Source: Eledone cirrhosa
Lineage: Eukaryota
Assembly: GCA_964016885.1 (NCBI GenBank)
Contig: OZ024744.1
Location: forward strand, 49,414,001 to 49,478,000
Length of the DNA: 64,000 nt
Reading direction: 5' to 3'
The notes beneath the pieces were generated by a model. The model worked only from the letters and a program-made list of their open reading frames with translations. It was not told the DNA's origin and made no database searches. The first letter of the stretch is position 1. Every line of letters starts with the position of its first letter. Shown here in pieces: positions 2,111-53,462 of this stretch. Position numbers and translations under genes: made by a program.

Positions 2111-3454
2111 GCACATGCGGTAGGGGCCAGCATAAAACTAACCCTTAAGGAACATATGTTCAAATTTAATGGAAAAACATATGCCCAAGAGGAAGGAGCA
2201 GCAATTGGTGTTAGCATTGCAGGCGACATAGCTAACTTATTCATGGTATGGTGGGACAGTAGACTTAAACTTAAAGAACAATTAGAAGACAGCTTAACCC
2301 TGATAATGTACTCCCGCTACGTAGATGATATAAACATCGTAGTTAAGACACGCCCACTAGAGAACAGTCAGGAACTAGAGAAAAACAATGGAAAGCATCC
2401 AGCAAATAGCAAACTCCATCCACCAGAGCATTAGAGTTACTATAGACTACCCAAGTAGACACCCCAACCATCGATTACCTGTACTAGACACAGAGCTCTG
2501 GTTAGATACCATTAACAACCAAAAACAAATCCTCCATTCCCATTATGCCAATCCCATGACTTCCAAACATCTGATCCACCGAAACTCGGCCATTTCGGAC
2601 CATACCAAAATCAACATATTGATTGCGGATTTGGTACGGGTGATGAGAAATGTGTCCCGCATGTGCAACCCCGAAGAACTAGAGAGACACATACAACACT
2701 TCATCCACTGTATGCAGTTCTCTGGCTACAATCAGAGAGATAGAATCAGAGTGTATAGAGGAGCCAGAACCAAATGGGAAAAAATGGTAAATAATGACAT
2801 AAATGGGACCTGCCCCTTGTATAGGAGCAAATTTTGGAATAGAATAGAAAGAACAAGGAACAAGGCTAATAGAATAAACTCATGGTATGATAGCAATACA
2901 TACCAGAGTGTAATGTTCATCGATACAACCCCTAGAGGCGAACTAGCCTACAAATTTAGAAGGGCCCTAAATAAACATAAACTCAATATTAAGATAGTAG
3001 AAAGACCAGGTACCTCCGTAAAAACACTTATTAGCAAGACATACCCTTTTCAAAGACCCTCATGTATAGATAAGAAATGTATAACCTGTAAAATAAGCCC
3101 CCATATTAACTGTAAAACTGTAAAACTAGAAATGTAGTGTATAGCATAAGATGTACTGAAGGACAATGTAGAAACAAAAATATAGTGTACATAGGTGAGA
3201 CAGCTCGTAGTATAGGTGAACGGATAAATGAACACTGGCGAGACCTTCAAGATAATAAAGAATCATCTGTACTCTACCAACATGCTAAGATAAAACACAA
3301 GGGTAAATTAGAGAACATAGAAATAAAAATAGAATCTACACACAGAAAAGATGGAATGTTTAGACAAATTACAGAGGCAATAAACATAAAAGAATTACAA
3401 CCAAAATTAAATAGAAAATATGAGTGGAACAGCAACATCACAACTTATAATTAA
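2111..3454 (+). pseudogene. frameshifted PLE reverse transcriptase + GIY-YIG endonuclease
   Basis: FKFNGKTYAQEEGAAIG, YSRYVDD, LPVLD and YSIRC..C..YIGETARSIGERINEH motifs; frameshifts near 2385 and at an 8-nt duplication (tgtaaaac, 3111-3126) that the 58640 copy lacks. Confidence 0.92.
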
Positions 3455-11819: not shown

Positions 11820-12661
<842 letters not shown>

Positions 12662-13669
12662 TGCAACAACATCCCTCACTAGCTATGCTGATGACACTAA
12701 GGTAGCACAGGCAATCAAAAACCCGGCTGACGCTGCCCTCTTACAGCAGGATCTGGATGCCATATACAGATGGGCGGAAGAAAACAACATGCAGTTTAAT
12801 GCTGGCAAATTCCAAGCCCTACAATACAAACCTGCAAACACAAACACAAATATAGCGGAACACAGCTACACAGGACCAGGAGGGACCGATATCCCCGTGT
12901 CAAAATCGATACGAGACCTGGGCATAGACATGAGCGATGATGCATCTTTTTCTTCACACATCATGAAGGTGGCGACAGCATGTAGACGATTCGCTGGCTG
13001 GATCTTGAGGACTTTCCTTACAAGAGATCGAGACACCATGTTGACACTGTGGAGGACTTTTGTCCTAAGCCGCCTGGACTACTGCTCCCAGCTGTGGTCA
13101 CCCCATAGTGTCAAACTAACCACAGAGCTTGAGGCAATCCAGCGAAGCTACACCAAGAGGATTGCCAAGATGAGGGAGACAAGCTACTGGGAGAGGCTGA
13201 AGGAACTGAACCTCTACTCCTTGGAGCGAAGACGGGAGAGATACGCAGTGATCTACATGTGGAAAATCCTGGAGGGACTAGCACCAAACTTTGGCATTGG
13301 GAGCTGGACCAACCGTCGAACAGGACGTCACTGTGTGGTGCCAAAGGTCCCGTCTTCCACATCTAGAATAAGGAGCAGGTATTGCAATAGCCTGGGATTC
13401 AAGGGCCCTCAACTCTTCAACAGGCTGCCGAGGCATCTGCGAGACTTGCATGACGTGGAGGTGGATGTCTTTAAGAAACATCTCGACACCTTGTTATCCA
13501 GGATCCCGGATGAGCCCACAGCAAGACACGAGGGAAACCTAAGGGCAGCAGCAACAAACTCCCTCCTACACCAGTGGCCAACCTATACAGGCTGGAGATA
13601 AAATGTGTAGCAACAAGGGCGGTGCCCCAGCATGGCCTCAGCCGGATGGCTGAAACAGGTAAAAGAGTA
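12662..13669 (+). mobile_element. CR1-group LINE family D, 5'-truncated
   Basis: [35 protein letters not shown]; tail ggtaaaagagta. Confidence 0.92.
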
Positions 13670-16542: not shown

Positions 16543-18471
<1,929 letters not shown>

Positions 18472-18588
18472 TAATAAGAGGAATTCCAACTTTGTCTGAT
18501 TTACTCGTTTTATTTACAATCCTTTAAAATATATATAATGGTATTATAATGAAATAGTATGATAGAATATTAAATTCTAAGTGTTAAT

Positions 18589-18627
18589 TGAACAAGTACT
18601 TTCATGCTTTCGCAATCTTCAGGTTCA
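18589..18627 (-). ncRNA. minimal hammerhead ribozyme (inverted pLTR)
   Basis: reverse complement of 19303-19341. Confidence 0.85.
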
Positions 18628-19302
18628 TGATATGTGGTGACAGTCGAGTTTGCAATTTTCAACTGTAATGAGATGGGTAAATTTCCTACCTTTTATACAT
18701 TTTATACAGAGAAAAGTGGCTCCAGAATGCAAAGCCCTGTAAACTGTATTTCGACCAATCAGTGTGTAGTTTCACTGAATTACTACAGCTGATTGGTTTA
18801 AGCGTCACGGCTGGTTGAGCATGCTAACGACCAATAGTCATATCCAACGTATCAATTGTTTTGCTTTTTTGAAATGATGAAAATAGCATTTTCTATTAAT
18901 CATCACCATCAACATCACTTTTATTATTATTATTATTGTTGTTGTTGTTGTTGTTAGTGGTCGTGGTCATAGTGGTAGTAGAAGTAATACCCCTAGGCGT
19001 TATTATTGTTCATTTAGCTTGGGTTTGAATTTATCAATAAAATTCTTTTCTTTGATTTCAAAAAAGCAAAACAATTGATACGTTGGATATGACTATTGGT
19101 CGTTAGCATGCTCAACCAGCCGTGACGCTTAAACCAATCAGCTGTAGTAATTCAGTGAAACTACACACTGATTGGTCGAAATACAGTTTACAGGGCTTTG
19201 CATTCTGGAGCCACTTTTCTCTGTATAAAATGTATAAAAGGTAGGAAATTTACCCATCTCATTACAGTTGAAAATTGCAAACTCGACTGTCACCACATAT
19301 CA

Positions 19303-19341
19303 TGAACCTGAAGATTGCGAAAGCATGAAAGTACTTGTTCA
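19303..19341 (+). ncRNA. minimal type-I hammerhead ribozyme (5' pLTR)
   Basis: tgaac CTGAAGA t tgc gaaa gca t GAAA gtac TT gttca; GNRA-capped stem II, palindromic AAGTACTT stem III, CUU site. Confidence 0.88.
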
Positions 19342-19545
19342 ATTAACACTTAGAATTTAATATTCTATCATACTATTTCATTATAATACCATTATATATA
19401 TTTTAAAGGATTGTAAATAAAACGAGTAAATCAGACAAAGTTGGAATTCCTCTTATTAATATAATCTTCTATACACAATCATACACACCCGTGTATATTT
19501 ACCTATCTATATCTATATATATATTCCTATTGTGTATATGCCAAC

Positions 19546-20895
19546 ATGTCTGGAAAGCAACAAATGAAACCAACAGAATCAGAAAGAATTCTAAAGGAGA
19601 TATCATCGAAATTATCAACACTTATCACGATGATGGACACACAATCCTCTATTTTAAAGGAAATAGAAAAACAATCTACAGACGGAAAACTTATAACTGA
19701 ACATATAAACTCTGAAATTAAGAATTTAGCTGAAATTATACCAACAGTTATCAAAGATACAAGAGAAAGCCTACCACAACCCCCTTGGATGTCAGAAATA
19801 AACGAAAGAAATTTGGAAAACAAAACACATCGAATAAGAAAAGAAATGTGGAAGACATGGAAAAAATTCCTTAACATAAGAAAACAAAATTTCTGGAAAG
19901 CATACAGATGCGAAAAATATGTCGAAACACATTCGAAATGGCTCTCTCTAACGGCACCCATACTCCCTCGTAAATACCTAATTACAGAAATTGCAGGAGA
20001 ACCAGAAGAAGAAACAAAACTCCGATGGGAACTTACATTGACAAAATTCAGGACCGACATCTCCATTTCTGAATGTAAACAATCCCGCTACAAAGCCAAA
20101 TATGAAGCTATTGATGACCAAATTGAAGTTGAAATTTCAAAGCTAACTGCTGGTATTATAGCTGAAAAACTACGAGAACTATGGATCGGAGATATCTCAA
20201 AAGAAGAAAACAAATCGAGAAAGGTATGGCAGCAGAAACAATTATTTCTCGATGAATATGCTGCAAATTACGGTAAAGACTCTGGAACCCTGAGAAAAAG
20301 CATTAAAAGTGGACAATCTCATCAACACAACATACGCCAGAACACGTGCCAACACAAACACTCACCTTACCTTGAATCAAAGAAGAACTACGGTAATAAC
20401 TCTTCGCTTTTTCTACAAAAACACCCTATCGCACACAACATGAACAAAAAGCACAAACACGATAGGTATTCCTTTGACCAGACCATGAGAAGTAGTAAAA
20501 CCAGGAGATCATTCTCAAGATCTCAACAGAGACTACCAACAAGGAATGTGGAAACAAAACGTAGAATAACCAGATCACTCTCAAGATCTCAACAGAGATT
20601 GCCCACAAGAAACTGGACGAAAAAACGATCTAAACCTGAAAGCAAACCTAGGTCATTTTCCCAGATTGTTAAAAATAATGCTAACAGGAAGAAAAATAAT
20701 ATACAGAATACCAAAAATAGGACAAAATACATAACGAAACCAAATATAATATCACGACCAAAAGTTCATCAAGCGAACACCAACAGGAATATAAATCCTG
20801 AACAGAGAAAAATTCATTTTTTAACGTCAGGACAACAAAAACCGGAAAAAGAAAAACTCCAGGAGGAAACATACCCAAAACAGCTGTACACGTAG
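19546..20895 (+). CDS. PLE ORF1, 449 aa: helical/coiled-coil N-terminus, basic R/S/K-rich C-terminus
   Basis: uninterrupted 1350-nt ORF in AT-rich DNA; starts ccaacATG just after the pLTR; duplicated SRSQQRLPTRN repeat. Confidence 0.85.
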   Translation: MSGKQQMKPTESERILKEISSKLSTLITMMDTQSSILKEIEKQSTDGKLITEHINSEIKNLAEIIPTVIKDTRESLPQPPWMSEINERNLENKTHRIRKEMWKTWKKFLNIRKQNFWKAYRCEKYVETHSKWLSLTAPILPRKYLITEIAGEPEEETKLRWELTLTKFRTDISISECKQSRYKAKYEAIDDQIEVEISKLTAGIIAEKLRELWIGDISKEENKSRKVWQQKQLFLDEYAANYGKDSGTLRKSIKSGQSHQHNIRQNTCQHKHSPYLESKKNYGNNSSLFLQKHPIAHNMNKKHKHDRYSFDQTMRSSKTRRSFSRSQQRLPTRNVETKRRITRSLSRSQQRLPTRNWTKKRSKPESKPRSFSQIVKNNANRKKNNIQNTKNRTKYITKPNIISRPKVHQANTNRNINPEQRKIHFLTSGQQKPEKEKLQEETYPKQLYT

Positions 20896-23129
20896 ATCCT
20901 AAAATAATTAATTTATCTAAAAGAGATCTTGACAATGATGAAATGCAAATTCTGTCAAAAGGACTGAAATTCACACCGACTCCAACAGTCAACCACCAAG
21001 AACTGAAGGAGGATACCCAAGAATTCTGTCGAAAATTACGTCTTGTAGAATTCTTCGCTGATAAAAATAATGAGAGTGATGAATCACTAGTAAAGAATAA
21101 ATCAAATTTCACTCCGCCAAAAGGAAGAAATATCTATCTCGACCAATACATTGACATCCTGTCTAAATTTCCTCTTAGACATAATACTAATGTTAGGCCA
21201 AACATTAACAAATCAGAAATGTCTGCACTTAAACGTATACAAAATGATAAAACAATAATAATTAAACAAGCAGATAAAGGGGGTGCAGTTGTTATAATGG
21301 ATACTGAATACTACAAGGATTTGGTTGAGGAACAACTGAAAGACACAACATTCTATCATGAAATACCGTCAAATATAGACCACAACATCATGAAGAAGAT
21401 CAACAACCTGGCTTCAAAATACCACAACTCATTTACTGATAAGGAAAGAGACTACATCACCAATTTTGAGCCGAAACCCAGCAACCTGTATGGCCTACCG
21501 AAAGTTCACAAGTCAAAAGAAATACAACTGGCAGTAAGAGAACAAAACAGTGAGTACATTAAATTATTACACCCAAAAGACTTAAAACTTAGACCTATTA
21601 TAGCTGGTCCAACATGCCCCACTCACCGTCTAAGCAATTTTGTTGACATTATTTTGAAACCACTATGTATTCACATACCCAGTTTCATCCGGGATGATAT
21701 CGACTTCCTGTTCCATCTTCCCAAAACCACGGAAACGAATTCACTTCTACTCAGTTTTGATGTGGTAAGCCTTTACACCAACATTACACATGATTTAGGA
21801 ATAAAGGCGGTTAAATACTGGGTGGAAAAACATAGAGAAGTGATTCCCATTAGATTCACAGCGCCATTTATATTAGACGCAGTTAAACTTATTCTGGAAA
21901 ACAACACTTTCTTCTTCAATGGAAAGAATTACATCCAAATTAGAGGCACAGCGATGGGAACGAAGTTTGCTCCCGTTTACGCGAACTCTGTAATGGGATA
22001 CTTAGAACAACAACTCTACCAAGAAATAGAGGAAAAATATAGTACTGACTTTAGAAAGTACATTGAAAAATCTTGGAAGAGATACCTTGACGACTGTTTC
22101 ATCATCTGGACAGAATCTTTAGATACTCTGGATGAGTTCAATATCCTCCTGAATAACCTACACCCATCTCTCCAATTCACAAAAGAGATGAGTAGGACCA
22201 AATTACCATTCCTAGATATAATGATAATCAAAAACGACACCACCATTACCACGGATATATATTATAAACACACAGACACCCATCAATATCTGAATTTTAA
22301 GTCGTGCCATCCACCTCATACAAAACGCAACATCCCATACTGCCTAGCCAGAAGAATTTGTACCATTGTAGAAGATACGAATACCAGGTACAAACGCCTA
22401 ACAGAACTAAGAGAATTTTTGCTCAAACAAAAATACCCATCTCTACTTATAGAAAATGGCATACAGCGGGCTATAAAAATACCTATACAACAACTTAGAA
22501 CAACCCAAAGAAGAAGAAACCAAGAACTGGTCATACCATTTATAATGACACACAACCCATGTCACCAGAATATCTTCAACACTGCCAAAGCAAACCTACC
22601 GATCATTGCTCAAAGTAATGAATTAAAAGGCTTAATCACAGATCGATCTTTGACTCTTAGTAAAAGACAGCCAAAAAATTTGAAGCAATTGCTAACAAAA
22701 GCAAAGTTTGACCTTAACAACAAAGACCAATCATTCACTGTATCTAAATGCAATGATAATCGATGCGGCACATGTCAATCCATACACGCCGGTCAATATA
22801 TGAAAACAAAAACTGGAAAAATATTCACAAATGCAAATATGAACTGCAAAAGCAGAAATCTAGTTTACTGCATTAAATGCCCGAATTGTGAAGAACTATA
22901 TGTCGGTCAAACTGGAAATGCACTATCGGAACGTGCACGGGTACACCGTCAACAAATCAGAGACCCAAATGTCCGTCAGATACCCCTAAGCGGCCACCTG
23001 GCAACATGTGGTCAGGGAATATTTATAATATTCCCATTCTACAAATTACACAGCCCAAATGAAATCAAGAGAAAAATCAAAGAAAAGAATTTTATTGATA
23101 AATTCAAACCCAAGCTAAATGAACAATAA
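20802..23129 (+). CDS. PLE reverse transcriptase + GIY-YIG endonuclease (first ATG at 20943; probably entered by -1 frameshift)
   Basis: KIINLS..ILSKGLKFTPTP, KQADKGG, YGLPKVHK, LRPII, SFDVVSLYTNI, GTAMG, RYLDD, CxxC, LVYCIKC..YVGQT; no internal stops; frame is open from 20802. Confidence 0.95.
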   Translation, partial: TEKNSFFNVRTTKTGKRKTPGGNIPKTAVHVDPKIINLSKRDLDNDEMQILSKGLKFTPTPTVNHQELKEDTQEFCRKLRLVEFFADKNNESDESLVKNKSNFTPPKGRNIYLDQYIDILSKFPLRHNTNVRPNINKSEMSALKRIQNDKTIIIKQADKGGAVVIMDTEYYKDLVEEQLKDTTFYHEIPSNIDHNIMKKINNLASKYHNSFTDKERDYITNFEPKPSNLYGLPKVHKSKEIQLAVREQNSEYIKLLHPKDLKLRPIIAGPTCPTHRLSNFVDIILKPLCIHIPSFIRDDIDFLFHLPKTTETNSLLLSFDVVSLYTNITHDLGIKAVKYWVEKHREVIPIRFTAPFILDAVKLILENNTFFFNGKNYIQIRGTAMGTKFAPVYANSVMGYLEQQLYQEIEEKYSTDFRKYIEKSWKRYLDDCFIIWTESLDTLDEFNILLNNLHPSLQFTKEMSRTKLPFLDIMIIKNDTTITTDIYYKHTDTHQYLNFKSCHPPHTKRNIPYCLARRICTIVEDTNTRYKRLTELREFLLKQKYPSLLIENGIQRAIKIPIQQLRTTQRRRNQELVIPFIMTHNPCHQNIFNTAKANLPIIAQSNELKGLITDRSLTLSKRQPKNLKQLLTKAKFDLNNKDQSFTVSKCNDNRCGTCQSIHAGQYMKTKTGKIFTNANMNCKSRNLVYCIKCPNCEELYVGQTGNALSERARVHRQQIRDPNVRQIPLSGHLATCGQGIFIIFPFYKLHSPNEIKRKIKEKNFIDKFKPKLNEQ
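20817..20823 (+). promoter_or_regulatory. candidate -1 ribosomal frameshift slippery site U_UUU_UUA
   Basis: ORF1 codons caT TTT TTA; a -1 slip enters the RT frame, which is open from 20802. Confidence 0.75.
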
Positions 23130-23507
23130 TAACGCCTAGGGGTATTAATTCTACTACCACTATGACCACGACCACTAACAACAACAACAACAACAATAAT
23201 AATAATAATAATAAAAGTGATGTTGATGGTGATGATTAATAGAAAATGCTATTTTCATCATTTCAAAAAAGCAAAACAATTGATACGTTGGATATGACTA
23301 TTGGTCGTTAGCATGCTCAACCAGCCGTGACGCTTAAACCAATCAGCTGTAGTAATTCAGTGAAACTACACACTGATTGGTCGAAATACAGTTTACAGGG
23401 CTTTGCATTCTGGAGCCACTTTTCTCTGTATAAAATGTATAAAAGGTAGGAAATTTACCCATCTCATTACAGTTGAAAATTGCAAACTCGACTGTCACCA
23501 CATTTCA

Positions 23508-23546
23508 TGAACCTGAAGATTGCGAAAGCATGAAAGTACTTGTTCA
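23508..23546 (+). ncRNA. minimal type-I hammerhead ribozyme (3' pLTR)
   Basis: identical to 19303-19341. Confidence 0.88.
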
Positions 23547-23720
23547 ATTAACACTTAGAATTTAATATTCTATCATACTATTTCATTATAATACCATTAT
23601 ATATATTTTAAAGGATTGTAAATAAAACGAGTAAATCAGACAAAGTTGGAATTCCTCTTATTAATATAATCTTCTATACACAATCATACACACCCGTGTA
23701 TATTTACCTATCTATATCTA

Positions 23721-24512
<792 letters not shown>

Positions 24513-26218
24513 CACTCTTTTACTCTTTTACTCTTTTACCTGTTTCAGCCATCCGGCTGAGGCCATGCTGGGGCACCGCCCTTGTTGCTACACATTTTAT
24601 CTCCAGCCTGTATAGGTTGGCCACTGGTGTAGGAGGGAGTTTGTTGCTGCTGCCCTCGTGTCTTGCTGTGGGCTCATCCGGGATCCTGGATAACAAGGTG
24701 TCGAGATGTTTCTTAAAGACATCCACCTCCACGTCATGCAAGTCTCGCAGATGCCTCGGCAGCCTGTTGAAGAGTTGAGGGCCCTTGAATCCCAGGCTAT
24801 TGCAATACCTGCTCCTTATTCTAGATGTGGAAGACGGGACCTTTGGCACCACACAGTGACGTCCTGTTCGACGGTTGGTCCAGCTCCCAATGCCAAAGTT
24901 TGGTGCTAGTCCCTCCAGGATTTTCCACATGTAGATCACTGCGTATCTCTCCCGTCTTCGCTCCAAGGAGTAGAGGTTCAGTTCCTTCAGCCTCTCCCAG
25001 TAGCTTGTCTCCCTCATCTTGGCAATCCTCTTGGTGTAGCTTCGCTGGATTGCCTCAAGCTCCGTGGTTAGTTTGACACTATGGGGTGACCACAACTGGG
25101 AGCAGTAGTCCAGGCGGCTTAGGACAAATGTCCTCCATAGTGTCAACTTGGTGTCTCGATCTCTTGTCCGGAAAGTCCTCAAGATCCAGCCAGCGAGTCG
25201 TCTGCACATTGTCGCCACTTTCATGATGTGTGAAGAAAAAGATGCATCATCGCTCATGTCTATGCCCAGGTCTCGTATCGATTTTGACACGGGGATATCA
25301 GTCCCTTCTGGTCCTGTGTAGTTGTGTTCCACTACATTTGCGTTTGCAGGTTTGTTTGGAGGTTTGTATTGTAGGGCTTGGAATTTGCCAGCATTAAACT
25401 GCATGTTGTTTTCTTCCGCCCATTTGTATATGGCATCCAGATCCTGCTGTAAAAGGGCAGCGTCAGCCGGGTTTTTGATTGCCTGTGCTACCTTAGTGTC
25501 ATCAGCAGAGCTAGTGAGGGATGTTGTTGTATGTACTACAGAGGGCATGACTGAGAGAGCCACCAAAAACAGTAGTGGTCCCAGGACTGTCCCCTGGGGC
25601 ACCCCACTTGTTATTGGTGTTTCCTTTGAGAGGGCCCCATTTGCTGCGACTGCCTGGCTTCTGTCCCTTAGGAAGCCATGCAGCCACTCACCTACTTTTC
25701 CAGTTATGCCGAGTCCGTGTAGTTTGTGACATATCATTCCGTGGTCGACCTTGTCAAAGGCCTTCGCAAAGTCAAGATATACCACGTCTACATGTGAGCT
25801 GTCTAGTAGTTGTCTCAGTACCCAGTCGTAGTGATGTAGCAGCTGTGTAAGGCAGCTTCTTTCTGGGCGGAAGCCATGTTGCGTGCTAGTCAGGTGGTCA
25901 TTTTCCTTGAGGAAAGTGATCAGTTTCTTTCTGACGACTCGCTCCATGACCTTACTGATATGCGACGTCAGGGAGACTGGCCTATAGTTTTTGGCCACCG
26001 CTCTGCTACCTCTTTTATGGATAGGGCATATTGTGCCTTCTTTCAGCTCCCTGGGTAGTACACCGCTAGCCAAGGAGCTTCTGAAGAGCATCTTCAGTGG
26101 AGTTGCTAAGGCCCGCTTACATATTTTTAAGAGAAGTGCTGGGAATCCATCAGGTCCAGCAGAAGAGTCTGTTCTAATTTCATCAATGGCGTACACCACA
26201 TCCTCCTTCGTTATGTCT
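24513..26218 (-). mobile_element. CR1-group LINE family D, 5'-truncated, RT motif mutated to SADD
   Basis: ORF 24520-26199: [41 protein letters not shown]; (TAAAAGAG)n tail. Confidence 0.93.
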
Positions 26219-26373
26219 ATGTATTTATATATATATGTATATATATGTATTTATATATATATATGTATATATATGTATTTATATATATATGTATATATAT
26301 GTATTTATATATATATATGTATATATATGTATTTATATATATATATGTATATATATGTATTTATATATATATG

Positions 26374-26794: not shown

Positions 26795-30055
<3,261 letters not shown>

Positions 30056-30190
30056 TTTGTTAGAGATGCCTACTGGCTGTAGTAGGTTTTACTATGTATT
30101 TAGGTAAGGCGGGTCTTCTCTGTTACTGAGTACCGCCAAAGGTCTCGGTCCAGTGACATTGTCTTGGAGAGGTGAGGTGTAAGTGTGTAC

Positions 30191-50571: not shown

Positions 50572-53462
50572 ATCATCATCATCATCATCATCTTTTTACG
50601 TCCGCTTTTCCCTGCTTGCAAATGTAGGACGGGTCTTATTCAGCACAGCATCTCTCCACTCATCACGGTCCATCGTCATCTCCACCGTGAGCTTCAATGA
50701 TCTGAGGTCTGTTCTCACCACCTCCGCCCATGTTTTTCGTGGTCTACCTCTACCACGTCTTCCTTCAACTGGCATTTCCTGGCACTTCTTCCCCCATCTG
50801 TCATCCTCCATGCGCATCACATGTCCATATCACCTCAGTCTCCTCTCCCATACACAGTTTCTCAGACACAGCTTCTCTCTCAACACATTTATGCTGGGTC
50901 GTTCACGCACATTTACACTGCACATCCAATGGAGCATGCTTGCCTCATTTCTCTCCAGCCGTCGCATATACTCTGCAGTTCCTGCCCATGTCTCACTACC
51001 ATGCAGCATCGCGCTCCTCACACAGGCATCATACAACCAGCCTTTCATATGCAGAGAGAAACCCTTCTTCGTCACAGAGGAAGCAGCTCCCTAAACTTCT
51101 TCCAACCCGTCCTTATTCTAGATACTATGGCTTCGGAACACCCTCCTCCCATGCTAATCTGATCTCCTAGGTACCGGAAGCTATCCACCACTTCTATAGC
51201 GCCCTCCTGCATTTGAATAATGTGTCTATCAATGCGACTTTTACTGTCTAATTTCCTTGTACATCTACTGCATACATATTTCTCCCTACCTGTTAGTTTA
51301 CCTGCTATCCCGCTACATCTCTTGTGTACCCAGGATCTGCATTGTGTGCATTTTATAGAATTTATGCCAGTTCCTTTTCTGCATATTGAACATGGCCATT
51401 TCCCTGACGGAATCAGAGTTTTGTCCTCTTTTCTACTCATCAACACGTTTGTCTTAGCTAGGTTCACTCTCAGTCCTCTTGCTTCCAACTGCTGTTTCCA
51501 TAGCCAGAATTTATTCTCTAGCTCCTCTACTGATTCTGCTATAAGAACCAGATCGTCAGCATAGTGAAGTTCCCATGGACAGACAGTCTTAAACTCCTCT
51601 GTTATGGCTTGGAGGACTGTAATGAACAAGAGCAGGCCGAGGACCGAACCTTGATGTACTCCTACTTGTATCTGGAATTCCTCACTAAACTCCATTCCTA
51701 CCCTGACTTTACTGAGAGTACCTCTGTACAAAGTTTGCACTGTCCTCACAAGCCATTCCTCAACACCTAGCTTCCTTAGGGACCACCAGATGACAGATCG
51801 GGGTACCCTATCAAAGGCCTTTCCTAGGTCAACAAAGGCTAAGTATAGTGGATTATTTTTCTCTAAGAACCTCTCTTGCAATTGTCTCACCAAGAAGAGG
51901 GCATCTGTTGTACTTTTCCCAGGTACAAAACCAAACTGCATCTCATCTAGTTTGACCCTTTCTCTAATTAGTTGTGCTAATATCCTTTCTGCCACTTTCA
52001 TAACCTGATCCATCATTTTAAACCCCTATAATTGCTCCTCTCCAGAGCATCCCCTTTACCTTTGTAGCAATTTATGAGAATACTGCTGCACCAATCTTTG
52101 GGTATGACACCACTATATATAGCCTGATTGATGATGCGTGCAACCAGTTTAATGCCTACGTCCCCTGATGCCTTCAGCATCTCAGCAACTATCCCCGATG
52201 GTCCAGCAGCCTTACCATTTTTCATTTCCCTAATCACCTCTTGGACCCTATATTCGTCAATCTCAATAGCTGATCCCTCTGTCGGATATACTAAGGGTAA
52301 TTTCTCTCTCTCTCATTCGTTCTCCACATTCATCAGTCTCTCATAATGACATTTCCAGGCCTCCTTTTTCTGATCATTTGTGACACTAAGTACACCGGCA
52401 TCATCCCGGATAAATTTATCTCCAACAACATCCTGATTTGCATTGACACACTGCCTTGCAATGTGGAACACCGTTGCAGAACATTGGCAAACCTCCTACT
52501 CTCCGCATGCCTGCGTGCTAAGTACACCTGACGTCTAGCTTCTCTCTTAGTGGCTCTATATTCTTCCCTACACCCACCCTTTTTCCAAGACTTCCATGCT
52601 AGTCTTTTGTCTCTGATGGCCTTATCTACTGTGCTGTTCCACTACCAGGTCACTCTCTGTCTGGTTGGAGCTCTGCTCCAGCCACAAGTTTCATCAGTAG
52701 CCTGCAGCAAGTTGTCACGTAAGAAATTCCAGTTATTATCTATGTCATACGTCTCTAAATCGTCTTCTTTTTCGTCATATACATCTTGAAGGGCTTTCCT
52801 AAATTTGTATTTTAGTGAAAAGTCTCTTAGCTTTCAGACCTTTCTTCTCCACACCTTCCTGTATGTCTCATTCCATCTCTTGCTTACTGAGATATCACTA
52901 ACGACTAACCTATGCTGTGGGGTACATTCTTCTCCAGAGTATGCCTTGGTATTAGACACTATCTGCCCGTCCCGCTGCCTAACTAGTAAGAAGTCAATCT
53001 GGCTTATGTGCTCACCAGGTTTGTAGGTTATTAGGTGATTGGCAGGTTTCTGGAAGTTTGTGTTGCAAATAGTCAATGTACCTGCATCACAAAATTCAAG
53101 AAGTCTCATTCCTTCCTCATTTCTTGAGCTGTAACCGTGCCCACCATGTACCGCAGTGTAACCATCCTGGAGCTGTCCAACATGACCATTGAAGTCTCCT
53201 GCTAGCATAATGATGTCTCCGTCCTCTGTCATTGCTGTTGTTTCTAAAAGTTGCTCGTAAAAGCAGTCTTTCTCATCTTTGCCTAGGCCTGCTTGGGGAG
53301 CATAGGCCGAGATGATTGTCAGTAGTCTCCTGCCTACAACTAATCTAAGCTTAATTATTCGATTACTAACTCAAACTACCTCTATTGTCTTATTGATCCA
53401 TTTCTCAGCCAGGAAAATGCCTACTCCCCCTAACCCATCATCCTTACCTACCCAGAATAGCT

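Follow-up and report, generated by a model that had tools for sequence, protein, structure and literature searches.

How a Penelope-like element (PLE) produces its enzyme when the reverse transcriptase (RT) and endonuclease (EN) are encoded out of frame with the protein upstream is the question raised by a locus of Eledone cirrhosa (contig OZ024744.1, positions 49,414,001 to 49,478,000 of the forward strand; this whole stretch of 64,000 nucleotides is referred to here as the window). The window element contains two ORFs (open reading frames), ORF1 and an RT-EN frame, with an overlap of 94 nt in the -1 register that carries TTTTTTA phased as X_XXY_YYZ. The best explanation, to which we assign a probability of about 0.85, is that programmed -1 ribosomal frameshifting yields abundant ORF1 and a minor fusion of 1194 amino acids; we infer both the slip and the product ratio from the sequence.

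In the mechanism that we propose, ORF1 and the RT-GIY-YIG protein would be separate frames on a single RNA. Most ribosomes would translate ORF1 and terminate 23 codons past Phe-Leu, and a minority would slip by -1 on U_UUU_UUA, which is read by tRNA-Phe and tRNA-Leu, to give the ORF1-RT-EN fusion with either Leu or Phe at the junction. Such a ratio would supply many coiled-coil, basic-tailed RNA-binding/packaging proteins for each enzyme, comparable to that of gag and gag-pol.

Frame overlap and conservation of the junction

Recomputation reproduced the coordinates, overlap and phasing given in an earlier note on this DNA. TTTTTTA occurs once in the 3584 nt spanning both ORFs, and a base-composition estimate gives an expectation of approximately 0.002 phased sites within the overlap. 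Two other generic phased X_XXY_YYZ heptamers were found in ORF1, one at 19887 outside the overlap and CCCAAAA at 20874 inside it. As the note had also observed, KIINLS lies upstream of the first ATG in the RT frame (Table 1), and the slip product that it had put at about 1194 residues has this length when recomputed (426 + 768).

The T6 run was evaluated in genomic copies. Scanning of the 3.0-Gb genome returned 300 copies with T6 and three with T7 as exact matches. Gapped-pattern matching produced 160 matches, and all 100 of those listed contain a 6-nt run (95 T6 and five with substitutions); the best-scoring 40 of 1585 candidates, which constitute a biased sample, are all identical over 20600–21100. 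No indel was observed at the T run at a level of at least 5% in contigs of four public runs, three of them from one study that is possibly the source sample, and contigs lose rare variants. The possibility, raised in the earlier note, that most copies have a T run joining the two frames was not borne out, as such runs amount to about 1% of copies. The two-ORF layout with its phased heptamer is the state of the family, and is neither an assembly error nor a private mutation.

Summed contig depth, which does not equal copy number, climbs steeply from 5' to 3', as expected from 5'-truncated copies. The site is mostly kept in older copies at 91–99% identity. Among 30 older copies, changes shared by at least four were synonymous in 11 of 24 cases, compared with 36 of 170 singletons, for ORF1 1–260; the corresponding values for shared differences and singletons were 10/22 and 37/130 in the ORF1 tail and 14/21 and 64/270 in the RT. 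ORF1 is under purifying selection, and the family is young and intact, with hundreds of near-identical copies. Judged from its sequence, the window element would be best explained as an active, Neptune-type, endonuclease-bearing PLE. Short pieces 97–100% identical to the element were also recovered, over 19400–23250, in run X5 from a second organism or study, reflecting a close relative, contamination or transfer.

Distant ORF1 queries retrieved five further families from the same genome, four of which have RT-EN proteins 46–51% identical to that of the window element. In 60 genomic loci of the diverged families the junction could be placed 51 times, and TTTTTTA was present in every one of the 51, 56–93 nt before IINLS; it is in the correct phase in 45, and four of the other six carry private indels in homopolymer runs. 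Run lengths in family E were T6 in 46 cases, T7 in two and T5 in two (n = 50), and the family B' copy is broken. Scanning metagenome and genome contigs with RT yielded 81 public loci, of which 61 covered the junction; TTTTTTA was found in 12 and was in phase in all 12. When such metagenome and genome contigs were scanned with ORF1 there was no match, nor was there any in viral contigs scanned with RT.

An RT tree of 44 rows, from which loci with fewer than 200 aligned residues and near-duplicates were omitted and which holds no named references, placed the six families of this genome and 15 public loci in one clade (21 rows, support 100/100). Ten of the 15 public members possess T6A, accounting for ten of the 12 in-phase loci, and the variants A_AAU_UUA (L123), U_UUU_UUG (L127 and L152) and U_UUU_CGA (L148) occupy the same register. 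At L148, where U_UUU_CGA is in the -1 register and the junction lies approximately 70 nt before position 820, an ATG is also present in the RT frame; the Tyr-Phe-Arg variant seen there recurs in proteins P0116 and P0128. The -1 overlap and heptamer, which the earlier note had suggested seeking in related families, were found in five families of the same genome and in 10 public clade loci.

Across families, the spacing between heptamer and IINLS ranges from 50 to 185 nt and the spacing to the ORF1 stop is also variable; the -1 frame, by contrast, is invariably open at the site and for the most part has no ATG preceding the first RT motif. Constancy of heptamer sequence and codon phase inside such an open -1 frame, with free spacings, is the mark of programmed -1 frameshifting, and the conservation of the two-ORF layout together with the phased heptamer over a diverged clade is its comparative signature. 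This clade-wide conservation lends support to the proposal, made in the earlier note, that an abundant ORF1 protein would be accompanied by a minor fusion. Ten single-ORF relatives, in which the RT frame is open for 224–316 codons upstream in the canonical layout, are without the site, and comparison of the ORF1 profile with their N-termini detected no homology (hhalign probability 0.4%).

ORF1 and its homologues

ORF1 was predicted to consist of a helical coiled-coil or bundle domain with six long helices over approximately residues 1–250 (model pLDDT 92), followed by a basic, low-complexity tail (24% Lys + Arg, 5% Asp + Glu). Within the tail, a 38-nt duplication (20506–20543 and 20572–20609, 89% identity) results in a repeated SRSQQRLPTRN peptide. 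A search of 1.84 billion representative proteins with residues 1–270 identified 396 relatives, and none of the 150 homologues listed exceeds 706 aa.

Phe-Leu is found within the last 45 residues of 70 of the 90 homologues of at least 300 aa, the tails of which otherwise share nothing; the same dipeptide occurred in only seven and five cases in two windows upstream, and in 6.9 (maximum 17) among shuffles. The residue before Phe-Leu was Gln, Lys, Glu, Met or Trp in 0 of 70 homologues against a background of 22% (nominal P 2e-8, which overstates the significance because the homologues are related sequences), and these five are the residues without any codon ending in U. The preceding residue is split by codon ending, with Asn, His and Asp allowed and Gln, Lys and Glu not, and not by chemistry. 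In proteins P0051, P0055, P0069 and P0278, Phe-Phe replaces Phe-Leu near the end of ORF1, which would be consistent with U_UUU_UUU/C variants. The ORF1 stop is located at least 9 codons past Phe-Leu in 70/70 homologues and exactly 10 codons past it in 19 of them, a distance that is perhaps tied to ribosome spacing.

ORF1 is without a Pfam family (0 matches for the query and one marginal match among 51 members). No Atlas match above 0.77 was obtained, PDB sequence matches were weak and of coiled-coil type only, and the predicted model had no Foldseek match at E 0.001, resembling only generic helical bundles (Z ≤9.0, rmsd 6.3 over 123 residues). ORF1 may be an oligomeric RNA-binding protein with a ribonucleoprotein role. 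The description 'gag-pol-like' in the earlier note holds for the expression logic but not for ORF1 itself, which is predicted to be all-helical and gave no gag capsid or zinc-knuckle match.

No fused ORF1-RT protein of 787–2245 aa was found in the protein search, which is weak evidence; the best 120 RT-EN relatives measure 517–817 aa, though lengths up to 1357 aa were allowed. The names of their sources point mostly to bivalves (Mytilus, Saccostrea, Crassostrea, Pinctada) or to assemblies of bivalve symbionts, and the PLE proteins in the latter are probably host contamination. Those labelled bacterial, from gill symbionts and a metagenome-assembled genome, are P0152/P0160 (OOZ57813.1, OOZ57814.1), P0164, P0222, P0247 and L201, and most likely represent host DNA in bacterial assemblies.

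Weighing the alternative routes to RT-EN

Several observations weigh against ribosomal frameshifting. L157, a member of the RT clade, has no ORF1 upstream, and the related loci L154, L177 and L180, which stand outside the RT tree, contain T5 runs. Among the 90 ORF1 homologues, 20 are without Phe-Leu; seven of these have Phe-Phe or Phe-Arg, and the rest could stem from degenerate copies or from gene models. RNAfold compared with shuffles revealed no 3' stimulatory structure in the window family (z +0.48 and +0.87), and z of -2 or below was reached downstream of only 3 of 18 junctions, in an analysis that covers simple stems and leaves pseudoknots outside its model. The earlier note had likewise seen no strong downstream hairpin, and its weak ccgga/tccagg pairing is the one returned by RNAfold with z +0.87. 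Since no common 3' stimulator was found, the efficiency may be low or may rest on the heptamer and family-specific context. Enclosure of the slippery site by a stem was rejected as a clade feature, as only 4 of 19 junctions gave a shuffle p ≤0.04; pairing between the two sides of the heptamer is seen in the window (Table 1) and in family E, is strong in L124 and L125, and is absent in most families. Two further points would favor the main rival, in which RT-EN is translated from a spliced RNA, with the T tract acting as polypyrimidine tract and the next AG as 3' splice site: G follows 14 of 17 T6A sites, giving acceptor-like TTTTTTAG, and a Pinctada gene model, P0332 (1086 aa), fuses ORF1 to RT and skips the junction. 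The codon after Phe-Leu also begins with G in 48 of 70 homologues, PLEs are known to retain introns, including one in the 5' untranslated region (as described in passages of PMC8557442), and a pseudo-LTR exon, ATG-TAT-AAA-AG|GTAGGA with its donor at 19241, could be joined to CAG|G (20830/20831) to encode Met-Tyr-Lys-Arg-RT-EN in frame. We nevertheless consider splicing unlikely. P0332 lacks the conserved IINLS, as would result from a predictor bridging a frameshift, and splicing explains neither the constant Phe-Leu phase of ORF1 through the tract nor the presence of exactly six T without C. The first AG of L141 is at +76, L127 (T6G) has no phase-2 AG among the first five, and in 3 of 70 homologues no phase-2 AG can arise ahead of the stop. 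In 10 families, phase-2 donors made up 0 of 14 scored inside ORF1, and, on a generic donor matrix, an ATG with a donor was present upstream in three of the 10, four of which had short upstream cover; a conserved route for the intron that the earlier note had named as a way of joining the frames was not found in these families.

Transcriptional slippage, whereby RNA polymerase or the RT of the element adds a U within T6 so that a fraction of the RNAs is in frame, is less probable still. T7 and T5 copies at 1–4% are in line with it, as is the RT slippage reported in part of PMC5737442 at the U6A site of HIV. Slippage requires neither codon phase nor a terminal A, yet the public sites (12/12) and the six families of this genome share one phase, and A_AAU_UUA in L123 is without a long run. 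A run of six nucleotides is, moreover, short for polymerase slippage. We place on the same low level the idea that Phe-Leu is a C-terminal protein motif of ORF1 and that RT-EN arises in a separate round of translation, through reinitiation or from a non-AUG or internal start. It would accommodate the 19 of 70 homologues that end exactly 10 residues past Phe-Leu and the Met found before IINLS in some relatives, but not the fact that every DNA site reads TTT then TTA or TTG after a T, that the preceding residue is sorted by codon ending, and that the RT frame is open across the site, mostly without an ATG. The possibility that the assembly is wrong in the homopolymer, or that a single-ORF element is present here as a dead copy, is already refuted, with next to no probability left to it: fused copies with frames of 1096–1289 codons do occur in the genome, but each one examined carries a private indel or deletion (L086 +16 C, L102 +1 A, L104 +1 C; the L101 alignment ends before the junction), the copy ratio is 300:3, and the identical state is found in independent assemblies. 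Programmed ribosomal frameshifting is the reading that we prefer.

Architecture of the element and relation to known systems

Table 1. Coordinates of features of the PLE in the window.
Feature	Position	Strand	Remarks
ORF1	19546–20895 (ATG 19546, TAG 20893–20895)	+	449 aa
RT-endonuclease frame	20802–23129	+	775 aa; -1 relative to ORF1; opens after TGA 20799–20801
Slippery heptamer U_UUU_UUA	20817–20823	+	read His-Phe-Leu in ORF1 phase
KIINLS	20901–20918	+	RT-EN frame; first ATG of the frame only at 20943
Predicted hairpin enclosing slippery site	20796–20832	+	z -3.67 vs shuffles
C-x4-C-x2-C linker motif before GIY-YIG domain	22749–22775	+	by-eye comparison with rows of the PMC8557442 supplementary alignment
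Inverted copy of element 3' end (pseudo-LTR)	18467–19058	-	blastn self-match 23074–23668 to 19058–18467
5' partial pseudo-LTR with tail	19055–19524	+	99.8% identity to 23260–23729 over 470 nt
3' pseudo-LTR, reaching about 23668, with tail; (TA)n follows	23130–23729	+	
Minimal hammerhead-like motif	23509–23545; identical copies 19304–19340, 18590–18626	+; +, -	by eye

The element is flanked by (TA)n: a (TA)n microsatellite adjoins the inverted copy of the 3' end on the left (18467 side), and many contigs exit the element into TA repeats at 19463, the equivalent of the 3' end. The hammerhead-like motif is composed, by eye, of a GAAC/GUUC stem, CUGAAGA, a short stem II, GAAA and a palindromic GUAC, a type described in part of PMC4209133; it had no Rfam match, and the minimum free energy fold does not reproduce it. 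In RT-EN, Pfam localized RVT_1 to residues 301–439 (E 4e-6, below the curated cut-off) and GIY-YIG to residues 687–773 (E 4e-6); a PDB sequence search was without a match. Other LINE-type RT fragments and one more PLE-like RT fragment were recognized by eye in the window among (TA)n/(TACA)n microsatellites, at 24520–26250 (-), 28431–30059 (-), 12603–13601 (+), 51072–53370 (-) and 2379–3137 (+).

A second PLE lineage, comprising L162 (819–2459), L173 (569–2245) and L165 (1–2436), is set apart from the main clade in the RT tree (support 100/99). It possesses a different long ORF1 that ends just past a phased heptamer, and homology between the window ORF1 and those of L162 and L173 was not detected. 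L162 and L173 have U_UUU_UUA and RT frames that end without GIY-YIG, with a strong hairpin in L162. In L165, the heptamer is U_UUA_AAC followed by TAA, the end is GIY-YIG-like, and ORF1 is 812 codons long and includes a NADAR (E 6e-17) as well as a GDSL-like (E 4e-5) domain. No heptamer was seen in the sister loci L168 and L197.

The window element displays the features of endonuclease-bearing (EN+) PLEs, namely a PLE-type RT, a C-terminal GIY-YIG, the KIINLS, KGLKF and DKG motifs, a CCHH motif whose CxxC lies between GIY and YIG (LVYCIKCPNCEELYVG ... RVH ... GH), and pseudo-LTRs in direct and inverted arrangement; it departs from the canonical form in not having a single ORF. The CX2-5CxxC linker between RT and EN known from the Neptune clade is present, and the long linker resembles the Neptune rows of the published alignment, though it is shared with Nematis and Naiad. 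Assignment to the Hydra clade (no CCHH, DKT, RWK, CxCX5C linker) was excluded by CCHH, DKG and GLKF, assignment to Naiad/Chlamys (N-terminal GIY-YIG) by the C-terminal position of GIY-YIG, and assignment to Athena/Coprina/Terminon (no endonuclease, telomeric) by the presence of GIY-YIG and by copies dispersed inside chromosomes. Because the rows of the RT tree are without named references, the element appears Neptune-type by its motifs and is not a proven clade member; Neptune itself is described as paraphyletic in a passage of PMC8557442. Of the attributes of programmed -1 sites, the element shows a phased X_XXY_YYZ that is conserved and lies in a -1 overlap, and no simple 3' stem 5–9 nt downstream was found in its family.

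Published descriptions give EN+ PLEs one ORF and EN-less PLEs two (abstract of PMC8557442; section 8 of PMC6431247), in agreement with the earlier note that canonical EN+ PLEs have one ORF, and the clade breaks this stated rule. The type of mechanism is a familiar one, with a precedent among PLEs; the novelty would lie in an EN+ PLE clade that uses it. We give about even odds to the larger proposal that a large, hitherto undescribed EN+ PLE clade, common across bivalves and other marine animals and with an unnamed coiled-coil ORF1, expresses RT-EN only via U_UUU_UUA without a fixed stimulator, and that the second lineage, with its esterase-like ORF1, uses U_UUU_UUA or U_UUA_AAC, so that frameshift control would have arisen or been retained repeatedly among telomerase RT relatives. 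The clade is suggestive of retrovirus-like regulation of protein ratio in a class of retroelements without a capsid. Annotated RT-EN proteins of the clade would be N-terminally incomplete, and the clade offers dozens of U_UUU_UUA sites in their natural animal contexts, many of them stemless, as material on heptamer-only frameshifting. Since the family is young and intact, a full-length element is at hand for the poorly understood mechanism of PLEs. No description of a frameshift in an EN+ PLE was found in the portions of the literature covered (including PMC3846280, PMC5408684, PMC5718144, PMC6515669 and bioRxiv 10.64898/2026.07.22.740005), a survey that excludes Arkhipova 2006, Arkhipova et al. 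2017, Gladyshev and Arkhipova 2007, Craig et al. Fig. 1, preprint supplements and Repbase/Dfam.

Like the Neptune EN+ PLEs of Arkhipova 2006, as summarized by Craig et al. 2021 (PMC8557442), the window element combines a C-terminal GIY-YIG bearing CCHH with a CX2-5CxxC linker, tandem/inverted pseudo-LTRs, a candidate hammerhead-like motif and (TA)n insertion; unlike them, it carries ORF1 in a separate frame. According to figure legends in which the clade is unnamed, ORF1 can be split off by a frameshift accompanied by a pseudoknot in PLEs (PMC8557442, preprint), and this apparently concerns endonuclease-less elements. A coiled-coil ORF1 upstream of RT is shared with the EN-minus Athena and Coprina PLEs and Terminons as far as published passages describe them, whereas these are EN-less and telomeric; the present element bears GIY-YIG and is dispersed, and no conserved hairpin was found in the families compared here. 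According to the earlier note, T6A frameshifts are reported for coiled-coil/RT pairs of the EN-lacking Athena and Terminon PLEs. The Chlamys elements of Chara braunii are likewise EN+ PLEs with a separate ORF1 upstream, and differ in their N-terminal EN, zinc-knuckle gag-like ORF1 and plant host, with no frameshift site described in that part of the source (PMC8557442 supplement). HIV-1 gag-pol differs from the window element, in which no conserved stem-loop was found, the ORF1 fold is not gag-like and protease, RNase H and integrase are absent; the two have in common U_UUU_UUA, often followed by G, and, on the account in part of PMC5009743, an expected mixed Leu/Phe junction.

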